DNA from: Pedosphaera sp.
GTDB taxonomy: Bacteria; Verrucomicrobiota; Verrucomicrobiia; Limisphaerales; SIBH01
DNA length: 23,198 bases
Reading direction: 5' to 3'
Assembly: GCA_031414955.1 (NCBI GenBank)
Contig: JANOQV010000259.1
Coordinates: 1-23,198, forward strand
The position numbers are program-made. Positions 14,801 through 20,800 of the stretch are shown one piece after another (the first letter of the stretch is position 1; every line of letters starts with the position of its first letter).

Positions 14801-17800
14801 CCCAGATCGGATTACTGTGGGAGGTGGGGAAGATGCGCAGCGCCACCCAACTGCTACGGTCGATCTTCGCCTCGAAGGTCACGTCGCGCATTTTGCCGTC
14901 GGCCACGAATTCCTGCCTGGCCACGGACTGGCCGTTGACGATCAGTTCGATGGGCACGGTCTTGGTCTCACCAATGCGCGCTTTCTCGATCTGCCAGGTG
15001 AAACGATTCTTCGCCACCGTGTTGATTATGTCATCAAGCATTGCGGCGACTTTCGCCGTGGCCCGAATCGTCGTGGGTTTGTCCACCCGGAGTTCGCTGC
15101 CGTTCTCGCCCACCGCCGCGTCGTTCACCTTGAAGTCGATGAGATGGCTGTAGCCGTCGCTGACGTAAGTGCGGCCGAGGCGGACACCTTCGCACCAGTC
15201 GTCGTAGGTGAGCTTGCCGTCGAGTTTCACGTAGCTGCGCCCGAGACCGACGCGATCGCCATAGATGCACGGGAAATCTGTTTCGCCGCTGGCCCGGATG
15301 CGGAAGCCGACGTTCAAGCTGTGATACCACATGGTCAATTCTGCGGTCGGATCGGTATCGACGGTCGAAATGAAATCAACGGCCGGCACCAGCTTGCCGT
15401 CCGGCCCGGGCACGTCGTGGGTGATGTCCACGATGAACTCATTCGCGCCGATGCCGTCGTAGCGCGGCTGCTGGTAGCCCAGTGTTTCACCACGCGGCAC
15501 TTGAATGCCATTGCCGGAATGCGCCGGGCCGGTCACCGCGCCCTGCTTCTTCGCCCATTTAAGCGTGTTCAGCCCGAGCGTCGGCCAGTGATCCTTCGAG
15601 ACACCGCCGGGATACATCTGTTCCTTGAGCCGCAGCAGCACAAGGTGCCCGCTTTGGTGCGAACCGAACCCGCTCACTTCGATGTCGTAGCGCAGCAGGT
15701 AGGGATATTGCGAAACCTTGTCCACCGCGCCGCAGAAAAACTGCTTCTGAAAATCAAAACACGGCCCCCAGGTCAGGTTCGCGCCGATCTTCAAGTCTTC
15801 GCCCTTGCAGTGGCGGAACATGTCTTCGGCAAACACGCCTTCGGTCGGCTTCACGTAATGAGCGCAGCCCGCCGCGTGAATGTGATGGTCGCCCGACCAC
15901 CAGCCGAACTTCGCCGGGTCCACCCAACGGTCGGTCTTGAAGGACAGCTCCTTCGTGGCGGCGATGATGGCGTGCGAAGATTTCTTCACGATCGATTCCG
16001 GCCCGCGCGAAAGCTCCACCGTGTAACGGCCCGCCGGCAATTTCATTTTCTCGCCGTCGCCGCGATAAACCTGATCGTGGAACGCAAAGTCCGGAGCCAG
16101 GCGCTTGCTCCGCGCCGGGTAAACGCGGTTCTGCTGATCACGAATGACGAACGCCGCGATGGTCGGCTCGTTGCTGTCGTCGCGCACACGCAGCGTGACC
16201 TCCTGCGCCGGGCGCGCGGTGAACAGCACATCCACCTCGTTGCGATAGCCGATGTCCTGCGTCCCCTGCCCCACGTTGAAGGAGAACTTGCCTTCGCGCT
16301 TCCCTGCGTCGCGGCTGTAAAGCTGGATGATGCGATATTCGACCGCCAGGCCACCGAGTGTGGCGCTCATCGGCTGCGCATCGAACATGGCGAGATCTAG
16401 CCAGCGATTGGCCACGTCCTCGGCGGGAGAATTGAAGAGCCGCTGCGCATTCGGGCTTACAGCTTTTAGTGGCGCGGTCGTGCCGGATTCGTTCGCCACC
16501 TTGACCAGGAACACGCGCCAGCCCGATTCGTCCAGTTCTGGCTTGGCCTCACCCACCGCGACCTTCACCCGCATCTCGGGATTGATGCTCACGCCGAACA
16601 GCACATGCCGGTCGAGCACCGTCTGGATTTGCTGGCTGGCTTCGGCAGCGGGCAAGGCGGGCGCGTCCCTGAGTTGCTTCAACTCGGCGTCGCTCAATGG
16701 CGTGCCCAGATAAGCCAGCGCGTCGGTGACACGCGTGACTTGCGCCGCCAGCGGCTGCACTTCGACATTGGGAACGATGGGGAAGGATGCCGCAGTGGCA
16801 GCCAGCCCCAACAAGCACAGCAAGACGACAATGAGTTGGCGCATAATTCCTTTCGGGTGATTGCGGCGGATGATAGCGGGCGGCACGCAGAGGGGAAGCG
16901 CGATTCTCTGGAACGACGACACTGGAAAGTGTCGTCACCTGCCGACAAGAATGTCGGCGCTACAAACGTAACGCCGGCTTTCCAGCCGGCAGGTGGCGAG
17001 ACTTTCCAGTCTCGTGTCGGTGGCTCCTCGAAGCCGCACCCTCTCACAATTCACAGCCAACTCCCGCATTGCGCCACCGAATCCTTTCCCCCAAATTCCG
17101 CGCCCTATGTCGAGCCGGAAGCAGTATCCGTTCAATCTCATCGAGCCGAAGTGGCAGCAGTTCTGGGAGGAACAGCAGTCCTTCCGCGCGTTCAATCCCG
17201 GCGAAGTGCTGCCGGCGGAACATCCCTTCGCGCAACGTCACGGACTTGCGGGCAAGAAAGTTTCCGCCGCCGATTTGCCGCCGAAGTTCTATGTGCTCGA
17301 CATGTTCCCCTACCCTTCCGGCGCGGGACTGCACGTCGGGCATCCCGAAGGCTACACGGCCACGGACATTCTCGCGCGCTACAAGCGCGCCGCTGGTTCG
17401 CATGTGCTGCATCCGATGGGCTGGGACGCCTTCGGCCTGCCCGCCGAGCAATACGCCATCAAGACCGGCCAGCATCCGCGCGCGACGACCGAGGCGAACA
17501 TCGCGAACTTCACCAAGCAGATCAAAAGCCTCGGCTTCAGCTACGACTGGTCGCGCGAGGTGGACACCACCGATCCGAAATACTTCCGCTGGACGCAGTG
17601 GATTTTCCTGAAGCTCTACAACTCGTGGTTCAACCCGGAGACGAACAAGGCCGAGCCGATTGAGACCCTGAAGTTTCCAGGGGAGCTGGAATTGCCGGGC
17701 GCACAGGTAGGGCGCGGTGTCCTCACCGCGCCGCGCCTCGAATCGGAGGAGCGCCCCGGAACTGCCAACGCCTCACCCCGGCGCGCTGAGACAGCGACGC

Positions 17801-20800
17801 CCTACCAACTCGAAGACAAACGCCGCGCCTATCGCGACTCCAAGCGTCTCGCGTTCAGCAGCGAAGCCCCAGTGAACTGGTGTCCGGAACTCGGCACCGT
17901 GCTGGCCAACGAGGAAGTCATCGACGGCAAGAGCGAAGTGGGCGGCTTCCCCGTGGTGCGCCGGCCCATGCGCCAATGGATGCTCCGCATCACCGCCTAC
18001 GCCGAGAAACTGCTCGACGATCTCAACACGATCGACTGGAGCGACTCGCTCAAGGAGATGCAGCGGAACTGGATTGGGAAGAGCGAAGGGGCGGAGGTGG
18101 ATTTTCAGATTGGTGGCCGTGCGGACAAGATTCGCGTTTTCACGACGCGCCCCGATACGCTGTTCGGTGCGACCTACATGGTGTTGTCGCCGGAGCACAA
18201 GTTGGTCGCGGAAATCACGACGGCCGAGCAGCGCGAAGCCGTGAAGCAGTATCAGCAGTTCGCCGCCGGCAAGAGCGATCTCGAACGCACGGAACTCGCG
18301 AAGGAGAAGACCGGTGTCTTCACCGGTTCGTATGCCATCAATCCGGTGAACGGGGAGAAGATGCCCATCTGGATAGCTGACTACGTGCTCGCGAGCTACG
18401 GCACAGGTGCGATCATGGCAGTTCCATCTCATGATGCGCGCGACATGGAGTTCGCGCTCAAGTTCGACATCACAACTCAGAACGTGGTGCTGCCGCCAGA
18501 CGCTTGGTTGCGCGAGCGAGTGAGTTCCACTTTTGCAGATAAGACGATTGAAGAAATCCGCGACGTTTACAAAACCACGAATGCCTACTTCGGACAGGAA
18601 GCATTCTGTGAAACTGGAACTGCGATCAATTCAGCCAATCCTGAAATCTCCCTCAACGGCCTCCCTACCGCCGAAGCCAAAGCGAAAATCACCGCCTGGC
18701 TCGAAGCGAAGAGCCTCGGCAAGAAGACCATCAACTACAAGCTGCGCGACTGGCTCTTCAGCCGGCAGCGTTACTGGGGCGAGCCGTTCCCCATCGTGTG
18801 GAAGAAGGACGCGAATGGGAACGCGTATCACGAGGCGCTGCCGGAGAGCGCGCTGCCGTTGCTGCCGCCCGCGCTGGACGATTACAAGCCCACGCCCGAC
18901 GGCCAACCGCCGCTCGCCCGCGCGCAGGACTGGGTGAACCGGCCCGACGGCTCCGTGCGCGAAACGAACACCATGCCGCAGTGGGCGGGCAGTTGCTGGT
19001 ATTACCTGCGCTATCTCGATGCGGGGAATGATGGCACCTTTTGTTCCGCCGAGGCTGAGGAGTATTGGATGGGCGCGCCAAGCGTCGCGCAACTCGGTTT
19101 CCACGAGTGGCAGACGCGGCTCAAGGCGCTTTATGCCTTCGCTCTTAACAATCCGGAGAACCGGAAGGATTTCGTCAGCTACGACGTGGTCAGCCCGGCG
19201 GAAGCGGATTTTCTCGCCGGGAAAACAGGGCTGCATCTCGCAGGATACCGGCGGATGATCGACAACTTTGCCATCCGTCACGTCATGAACCAGCATGGTG
19301 ATGCGGAGAAGGAGCGCCAGCGCGGGCTGCTCCCAGTCAGCTTTGATGACCTGCTCCAGATTCCAGCCATCATCCACTCGGCGGATGAAGTGCGCTCCGG
19401 CGGCAAGACCGCAACGAACCTGGATCTGATCCTCTACACAAAGCGCGTTAATGGATGGCTGTACTATTTCGAAGAAGTACGGACGGCGAATGATTTGTTG
19501 GCGGCCAAGACGTTGTACAAAAAACCGGCGACGGCGAGTCATGCCGGTGAAGGCCTTGCTCAAACGCCCGAAGCGCTCCGTCGCACTGGGGAGAATCTAG
19601 CGAACACAGGGCCGCGTGGCAAGGTCACGCCCGGCGTGGACCTCTACGTTGGCGGCACCGAGCACGCCGTGCTGCACCTGCTCTACGCGCGCTTCTGGCA
19701 CAAGGTGCTGTTCGACCTCGGCTATGTCTCCACGCCCGAGCCGTTCTTCAAGCTCGTGAACCAGGGACTCATCCTCGGCGAGGACGGCCAGAAGATGTCC
19801 AAGTCGCGCGGCAACACGGTCAACCCCGACGACATCCTCGTGGAATTCGGCGCGGATGCCTTCCGCCTTTACGAAATGTTCATGGGGCCGCTGGAGATGG
19901 TGAAGCCGTGGAACACGAAGGGCGTGGAAGGCGTGTATCGTTTCCTCGGCCGCGTCTGGCGTTTGTTCGTCGATGAAGCGAGCGAGACGGAGTTCGAGCA
20001 GACGCAGACCGCCACCGATCCGGCGCAGCAGCGCGAGTTGCTGAAGTTGATCAAGCTCCACGCCGGCATCAAGGACGCCGAGGCGACGAAGGAACAGCTC
20101 AAGGCACTGCACGCCTGCATCAAGAAGGTGACGGAAGATCTCGACGGCCTGCGCTTCAACACCGCCATCTCGGCCATGATGGTCTTCGCCAACGACGCCA
20201 TGAACTGGGAAACGAAGCCGGTCTCCGTGCTGCGCGAGTTCCTGATTCTGCTCCAGCCTTTCGCCCCGCACATCGCGGAGGAGTTGTGGGAGAAATTGTC
20301 CAAAGTCCAAAGTACAAAGTCCAAAGTCACGGACGACGGTGCGGCGACCTTGGACCTTGGACTTTGGACTTTGGACTTGTCCTACCAGCCCTGGCCGAAG
20401 CATGACCCCGCCCTGCTCGTCGAAGACACGCTGGAGATTCCCGTGCAGGTGAACGGCAAGCTCCGCGACGTAATCCGCGTGGCGGCGACGGCAACGCAGC
20501 CGGAGATCGAAGCCCTCGCGCTCGCTTCGGAGAAGGCGCAGCAGTTCATGGGCGGCAAGGCGGTGAAGAAAATCATCGTGGTACCCAAGAAGCTGGTGAA
20601 CATCGTGGTGACCTGACGCCGCGCGCGCCTGGGCTTCGAGCGGATGGAAAAGAGGAAACGGGCCGAGCCCGTTTCCTCGTATCATTCCTGACTGACCACC
20701 AAGGAAGGACGGGCAGTCACCCGTTCCAAGGCCCTCGCCCCGTCACCGCCCGACTATGGATGCGCCGATCGGTAGAAGGCCGAATTGGTCGCCGGATTGG

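Follow-up and report, generated by a model that had tools for sequence, protein, structure and literature searches.

An in-frame GTAG-class REPIN in a verrucomicrobial leucyl-tRNA synthetase, with signs that the occupants of such protein loops turn over between related species

The leuS locus and its repeat

The window analysed here, a 23,198-nt stretch of a Pedosphaera sp. assembly (GCA_031414955.1, contig JANOQV010000259.1), holds leuS, for which the genome has no second match (TIGR00396, 922.7 bits against a cut-off of 548.4). The features of the gene and its surroundings are these:

16911..17024, no strand assigned: intergenic REP composite of family F11, upstream of leuS; F11 also flanks a RAYT-like gene on contig C241
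17107..20616, + strand: leuS, leucyl-tRNA synthetase (LeuRS), 1169 aa in an uninterrupted reading frame, with HVGH at residue 76 and KMSKS at residue 896
17623..17841, + strand: variable loop of LeuRS, residues 173-245, without a counterpart in PDB 1h3n
17707..17805, + strand: family-A REP doublet (REPIN), 99 nt from tag to tag with the GTAG tags outermost, forming LeuRS codons 201-233
17707..17732, + strand: head REP, a GTAG tag and then a hairpin (9-bp stem, 4-nt loop); peptide VGRGVLTAP
17733..17779, + strand: spacer of 47 nt, constant in length and variable in sequence among copies (38% identity mid-spacer)
17780..17805, - strand: tail REP, inverted, one base short relative to most family members
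19198..19530, + strand: PBECR3 nuclease-like domain, an in-frame insert in a second variable LeuRS slot (E 6e-18, 65 bits, cut-off 30)
20296..20379, + strand: inverted tandem repeat of the heptamer type, lying in frame within the anticodon-binding domain (residues 1064-1091)

The repeat within the variable loop belongs to the GTAG class of non-autonomous REPINs: a short, GC-rich hairpin has GTAG immediately on its 5' side, two such REPs stand inverted less than 200 bp apart, and the element is dispersed, multicopy and mostly extragenic. Most of the family-A copies compared have an additional G after 17789 that is absent from the LeuRS copy, and this one-base difference in the tail REP brings the unit to a length divisible by three. 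By BLASTN, 37 loci match 17701-17812 at E<=1e-6, the number reported in an earlier note on this DNA, and 57 do so at E<=1e-2; a profile search finds 55. Identity, previously given as 82-89%, spans 74-89%, and only 10 of the 27 near-full-length matches reach 82%. By our own gene calls nine of the 55 profile matches are intragenic, rather than 11; the other 46 lie between co-oriented (27), convergent (7) or divergent (4) genes or at contig edges (8). Between copies the arms are 88% identical as compared with 38% in the spacer. An Rfam scan gave no match to the element at E<=1 (four weak matches elsewhere fell far below gathering scores), and inspection by eye, without a close empty allele for comparison, revealed no obvious direct repeats in the flanks of the kind that mark target-site duplication by MITEs.

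At L155 and L193, in other genomes, family-A doublets flank a RAYT gene on both sides; in the congener G006 (L334) they lie within 56 nt of one, and in G007 (L333) a family-A variant flanks the RAYT orthologue. The three RAYT proteins scanned exceed the NF047646 cut-off of 80 (87, 81.6 and 87.2). The cognate gene flanked by its own REPs, by which a REPIN-RAYT system is recognised, is present in these other genomes; in this assembly, which is 95.9% complete, it was not found, the best match being 38%. Twelve Y1_Tnp matches occur in the genome, and a gene on contig C89 was rejected as a candidate cognate, the family-A copy 290 nt away being one-sided and the gene itself flanked by other repeats. 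From this association and the known chemistry of RAYTs, a cognate HUH/Y1 enzyme would be what spreads the REPIN.

The arrangement resembles REPIN-RAYT systems, or REPtrons, as these are described in the sources drawn on here (PMC5581495, PMC6006769, PMC8266576), in the inverted REP doublet and the cognate HUH/Y1 gene flanked by its own REPs, and in neither has a target duplication been seen, here as judged by eye. It differs from them in that one family-A copy in six lies inside a gene, a dozen or more repeat families coexist and the cognate RAYT was not found in this assembly. Closer to home, passages of the survey by Di Nocera, De Gregorio and Rocco (2013, PMC3733652) list 70 rows of in-frame GTAG REPs for Opitutus terrae, which share with family A the GTAG tag, the hairpin, the dimers with tags outside and the in-frame position in many unrelated verrucomicrobial genes. 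The hosts named there include uvrA, dnaE2 and ASPIC/UnbV proteins, with tRNA synthetases in other species. Those peptides also begin with V, and neutrality in loops was proposed for them, but as peptides (VAGVADP, VGPALAAG and GTGVPPV types) those listed are unlike family A; the comparison with the named families GTAG-1 to -24 of that survey was made at the level of the peptides. The Rickettsia palindromic elements (RPE) are likewise palindromes that are translated as in-frame parts of proteins unrelated to one another, according to the parts of two reports used here (PMC3733652, PMC3184786); RPE-4 and RPE-6, however, are classed there as CGTC type with no associated transposase, whereas family A is of the GTAG type and has a RAYT.

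Reading frame and peptide

The five in-gene copies named in the earlier note, on C259 (LeuRS), C21, C209, C288 (at 9376) and C45 (at 32200), all lie in open genes, in the sense of the gene and in a frame that begins V-G-R or V-G-G, although the NuoJ-like copy on C45, described as standing between domains, sits in a C-terminal tail (residues 170-206 of 222). Within this genome a single frame serves all nine in-gene copies of family A. In general the frame is less fixed than had been claimed: it is common to 12 of 16 in-gene family-A copies from outside the genome (found by a coding test that overlooked one such copy, L182, or more), and a different family within the genome is read in three frames (7, 3 and 1 copies). 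The suspicion that stop codons set the frame is supported by the open-frame counts and by length. Only one of six frames is open in the LeuRS, C209 and C21 copies, and a length of 3n is commoner in genes, with 12 of 21 doublets there and 16 of 81 in non-coding DNA (p=0.0017, after exclusion of five loci from this genome without a recognisable end). Copies 3n+2 nt long are divided between two frames (4 and 3). The family-A frame is largely set by stop codons together with 3n length. Stop codons nonetheless leave part of the excess of the VGR frame unexplained, since VGR frames make up 24 of the 42 open frames of the 16 non-coding 3n copies but are used by all 12 in-gene 3n copies; the remainder would call for preferential survival of the subtype with 26-nt arms.

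It might be asked whether the peptide is instead a selected protein module, a linker or an interaction tag carried by the DNA repeat, for which the single frame of the nine copies, the VGR excess and the retention of inserts in essential genes would speak. We regard this as highly improbable. Across 11 same-site pairs, pN/pS is 1.14 in the arms and 1.03 in the spacers as against 0.24 in host flanks (the pairs were picked for carrying the same family, a PriA pair was left out and at least one pair, of F11, probably goes back to independent insertions and not to inheritance), values near 1 that give no sign of purifying selection on amino acids. In a structure model the insert has no secondary structure, with pLDDT of 50-66 between helices at about 90, a contrast that is partly expected because only the query row carries the insert, and no defined fold is predicted; moreover, spacers are 38% identical and the same loops are filled by unrelated peptides. 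The notion of one shared module of about 35 residues therefore holds for the alike peptide ends and fails for the middle: the 'module' does not behave as a protein domain, and only the hairpin arms are common to the copies. With pS in the arms at 0.07 against 0.43 in host flanks, the same-site pairs indicate that the arms may be constrained as DNA within genes while the peptide is neutral, and the likeness of the peptide ends would be a by-product of that constraint.

Removal of the element after transcription or translation, in the manner of an intron or intein, so that the mature protein lacks it, could be entertained on account of strong hairpins (z -2.6) within essential genes, yet we find it scarcely credible. 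Enriched 3n length and absent stops would be expected only of an element that is read, and the element has no Rfam match. Inteins are far longer than 33 residues and have characteristic end residues; by these general criteria the insert is much too small and lacks the ends. It seems rather that in-gene copies would persist only where the frame is kept, no stop is introduced and a surface loop is tolerant, and that the surviving insert is probably translated as a near-neutral disordered peptide.

Occupied loops and their changing contents

The proposal that dispersed repeats have entered unrelated proteins in frame is borne out well beyond family A. Further families do so too, and about 30 insertions was far too few: a census of all repeat families gives 172 in-gene matches, of which 107, in 92 genes, have at least 50 coding residues on either side (67 hairpin-type and 40 heptamer-type). 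The 92 genes are about 2% of 4913 gene calls, and 12 genes have two or more insertions where 3.1 are expected (0 of 5000 simulations as high).

In LeuRS the loop region has 98 residues here and 59 in short orthologues, so that the 39-residue difference noted earlier stands as a length gap; the unit itself is 33 codons, about six of those residues being non-element. No orthologue provides an exact empty allele, as the nearest ones diverge in the loop flanks and G002 is frameshifted there. Among relatives, about 18 of 103 LeuRS loops carry repeats, of about nine families. In run X20, which is RNA by guess only, one contig connects the head REP with the leuS of a relative, and it is uninformative on transcription; an exact 205-nt contig in X1 may represent the source sample. 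The MutY comparison, formerly read as an empty site, is one of changed occupants, since the alleles of G007, G008 and G009 contain another REP doublet, and differing occupants are also found at slots in UvrA, the C209 gene and an FdhF-like gene (families were assigned by eye at all slots, and the UvrA and MutY trees have weak support).

The clearest case is the Fe-S/DmsC subunit, where nine of ten readable genomes are occupied, by four families. On the gene tree F11 appears twice, its neighbours being F12 and the VAASRES type (support 100 and 86-97), the occupant differs between sister genomes only 0.05-0.08 substitutions per site apart, both junctions are constant within a few codons, and former occupants are mostly lost. 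Different families in identical loops of related species suggest that repeats are overwritten in place: an occupied loop would become a lasting slot, its occupant replaced on a short time scale by a lineage-active REPIN of another family. The replacement is seen by comparison and on the tree; RAYT-driven overwriting would be its molecular route.

The same element and neutral peptide could also be had without overwriting, if independent insertions fell into a few tolerant empty loops, or into older neutral inserts that were eroded by deletion afterwards, and slot sharing reflected survival bias. Several observations would suit this: short alleles in some relatives at the UvrA (3 of 11), FdhF-like, C209, MutY and LeuRS slots; nested remains, with family A placed after an older, decayed repeat in the Fe-S subunit and, in the polymerase, enclosed by a heptamer inverted pair; the excess of genes with multiple insertions; and the finding that intergenic copies do not favour the vicinity of other repeats (4 of 28 lie within 50 nt, with 17% expected), a bias that a route whereby REPIN targets REPIN might predict. 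It accords poorly with a Fe-S slot that is occupied in nearly every genome and whose contents change between close sisters with stable junctions and little left of the old occupants, and we think it rather unlikely. On balance, a GTAG REPIN spread by RAYT, neutral as a peptide within genes and residing in slots whose occupants are replaced, is in our judgement the probable account.

In-gene slots as a record of REPIN spread

A parallel exists outside genes. In Pseudomonas chlororaphis, as given in the parts of the REPORTH study used here (10.1101/2024.10.14.618302), 13 of 20 always-occupied extragenic spaces hold different REPIN types, and overwriting upon RAYT exchange was proposed. There too one orthologous place has different types in different genomes, but those places are intergenic, whereas here they are codons of conserved or essential proteins in which the frame must hold. 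For genes, the sole shared insertion sites reported in the passages of PMC3733652 drawn on here are those in recB from two species of Xanthomonas, and these passages contain no selection test or occupant tree. Our literature search, which left subscription papers mostly uncovered, yielded only these cited precedents for REP-family swapping within genes and for RAYT-host protein fusions, and overwriting published only for extragenic REPINs. What is new here is the swapping of occupants of in-gene loops between congeners; in-frame REPINs as such were already known in the phylum.

It is tempting to speculate further, though we hold this as a tentative idea that may well prove wrong, that the RAYTs of these Verrucomicrobia rewrite REPINs in place, essential genes included, and that protein loops act as cassettes turning over between sister species, with a dozen families of REPIN, heptamer repeats, complete REPIN-RAYT-REPIN units and nuclease-like domains as their contents; in-frame REPINs might then have been landing pads for RAYT domains into PriA, CarB and AlaRS. 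Among the 120 fusion proteins listed, none has a family-A module next to the in-gene RAYT.

The sequence comparisons indicate that occupants may be exchanged between close relatives, and in-gene slots offer a sharp readout of REPIN spread, with junctions fixed by the frame, host synonymous sites as a clock and occupants that can be mapped on gene trees. For the organism itself, about 2% of genes carry inserts that would pass for lineage-specific protein motifs.

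The leuS element and its family

The single leuS match in the source genome (17107-20616, 1169 aa) contains the stretch 17701-17812, and the element within it, here called family A, is a GTAG REP doublet (REPIN) that runs from GTAG at 17707 to a complement of GTAG ending at 17805. Three features lie inside the gene:

17707-17805: family A; GTAG tag, 9-bp stem and 4-nt loop, 47-nt spacer, inverted second copy
19198-19530: PBECR3 nuclease-like domain, in frame, single copy in the source genome
20296-20379: heptamer-type inverted tandem repeat in the anticodon-binding domain, in frame

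The family-A insert maps between residues 145 and 146 of PDB 1h3n and has no secondary structure in a predicted LeuRS model. The PBECR3 slot holds diverged similar domains in four related genomes (G003, G008, G012, G013), heptamer repeats in about nine more and short alleles in the remainder. A weak hairpin lies 3' of leuS (20616-20700), and the window closes with a long, low-coding region whose open frame is repetitive (22400-23198).

BLASTN of the source genome returned the 37 loci (E<=1e-6) of the earlier note, and a profile from 27 full copies finds 55. The identity of 82-89% claimed there holds for 10 of 27 copies, which reach 82% or more, the range among near-full-length copies being 74-89%; and where 11 copies had been placed inside genes, our 4913 gene calls place nine of the 55. 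All nine start reading at the GTA codon; their hosts are LeuRS, an ImuB/DnaE2-type polymerase fusion, a haem c protein, an Fe-S/DmsC subunit, a TPR/FG-GAP protein (two copies), a molybdopterin oxidoreductase, UvrA (named by Pfam) and a protein labelled NuoJ-like in the earlier note, with the copy in its tail. More broadly, 29 repeat communities from intergenic DNA of the source genome give 172 matches when mapped onto genes, 107 of them (67 hairpin-type, 40 heptamer-type) in 92 genes where coding sequence flanks the repeat on either side. The assembly (5.84% contamination) also has two priA-like genes (C223:1-1729 and C56:35840-38185) and two alaS-like genes (C94 and C20); the contig edge at which the C223 priA starts falls exactly within a REP, at the site where congeners carry a REP-associated tyrosine transposase (RAYT).

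Reading frame and peptide

The reading in one frame is a filter and not a design. Stop codons sit in the head tag (TAG) and the tail arm (TGA), and a motif conserved in the spacer reads TGA on the opposite strand; one of six frames is open in the LeuRS, C209 and C21 copies. With five loci lacking a clear end left out, length is a multiple of three in 12 of 21 in-gene doublets versus 16 of 81 non-coding ones (p=0.0017). For such a unit with 26-nt arms the V...Y frame is the sole open one, and 3n+2 units use two frames, four and three times. Of the five long in-gene copies, four owe their 99 nt to a tail that lacks one base present in most intergenic copies, at a position that differs among the four (in LeuRS, a G is missing after 17789). 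A residual bias persists, as frames giving V-G-R at the element start make up 24 of the 42 open frames in 16 non-coding 3n copies versus 12 of 12 in genes; the VGR frame is used by 12 of 16 in-gene copies outside the source genome. Another family, F1, uses three frames in the source genome.

Identity across 32 long copies is 87-89% in the arms and 38% in the mid-spacer. The selection test on slot inserts, which together with family A is an addition of this work, used 11 pairs of genomes that share both a site and the family occupying it.

Divergence in the 11 pairs
Host flanks: pS 0.43, pN 0.10
Spacers: pS 0.34, pN 0.35
Arms: pS 0.07, pN 0.08

Judged against the flanks, the spacers and arms show no purifying selection on the peptide. 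Arm DNA is nevertheless six times as conserved as host synonymous sites, as a result of constraint, of conversion or of rewriting in recent time. The peptide is probably translated, since the frame is open in the sole leuS and 3n lengths are enriched. The fixed-frame module of the earlier note thus resolves into a stop-and-length filter acting on a neutral peptide. Its repeat within unrelated proteins is real, with in-frame copies and predicted translation, but was already known for Verrucomicrobiota: the accessible text of Di Nocera et al., 2013 (PMC3733652) has 70 rows of intragenic GTAG REPs for O. terrae, uvrA and dnaE2 being among the host genes, argues that the loops are neutral, and states shared sites for recB only.

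Slots and their occupants

Gene-tree evidence that the occupants of these variable protein loops are replaced is a further result; the orthologue comparison covers eight of the in-gene sites. From 110 LeuRS loci, 103 loops could be read (28 with 58-59 residues, 29 with 48), and about 18 hold repeat-derived inserts of some nine families, assigned by eye. A sister GTAG family (VGRVTPCAP) sits at the family-A junction in L253 and L254 (both 301-849), with similar upstream flank residues; seven loci from other lineages (L015, L018, L028, L287, L294, L321, L322) have in this loop a family of non-repeat, helical-looking inserts of 25-35 residues, and G002 leuS (L029) has a frameshift exactly in the loop that may be a sequencing error.

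The Fe-S subunit slot carries a REP in nine of ten readable genomes, from four families between identical conserved flanking codons; in the source genome a decayed copy of another family precedes family A. In a midpoint-rooted tree of this gene, built without its inserts, F12 alleles fall to either side of the root, and F11 occurs twice on short branches, once paired with an F12 allele as its sister (support 100) and once inside a VAASRES-type clade (support 86, 97). Near the N-terminus, a second variable slot (L370-L380) has differing inserts in nine of 11 genomes.

At the MutY slot, G000 (the source) and G001 share one family, and G004, G007, G008 and G009 share another; two further alleles are short and two are unclear. 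In UvrA, family A is present in three genomes, five hold inserts of three different kinds, and three have short alleles; support is weak in both the MutY and the UvrA tree. Occupants are similarly mixed in the C209 protein and the oxidoreductase; at the polymerase site G008 has a short allele, and three of the loci went unread.

Overwriting was proposed in the REPORTH preprint, whose available text reports that 13 of 20 conserved spaces between genes contain more than one type of REPIN (bioRxiv 10.1101/2024.10.14.618302). Intergenic family-A copies show no preference for repeat neighbours (4 of 28), which counts against targeted overwriting. A literature search returned no paper on REP-family exchange at fixed intragenic sites, though figures, supplements and subscription papers may contain one.

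RAYT partners and whole elements in genes

Family A, probably a new family of REPs, has a RAYT of its own in other genomes. The exact arm pattern occurs in eight of 11 congeners and four of 29 more distant relatives; among named records (80 of more than 117 loci) most are Verrucomicrobiota MAGs labelled Pedosphaera, Limisphaerales or Akkermansia. Family-A doublets bracket a RAYT gene on both sides in L155 and L193 and adjoin one in G006, and a variant arm flanks a 68% identical orthologue in G007; the three RAYT proteins scanned exceed the NCBIfam cut-off for RAYTs. The cognate orthologue was not found in the source assembly (best match 38%), which has four other RAYT-like genes, each between its own repeat pairs; one of those repeat families recurs a short way upstream of leuS (16911-17024).

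RAYTs cut at CT near the hairpin and carry out strand transfer (PMC8266576). In six of 11 congeners (G003, G006-G010), eight long ORFs (L100-L107; PriA, CarB, AlaRS and a UDPGP-domain fusion) carry a RAYT-like domain, which scores below the NCBIfam whole-protein cut-off, with a REP doublet in frame on each side of it. Among 8000 scored candidates a profile matches 2103 proteins of at least 332 residues, MetH-, IspG-, DinG- and methylase-type Pfam sets included; the best 120 are mostly RAYT-host fusions, and the family-A peptide is absent from them. Passages of PMC5581495 and PMC6006769 contain no such fusions. The eight ORFs and the fusions suggest that RAYTs can use in-frame REPINs as landing pads, or that such REPINs can be products of collapse.
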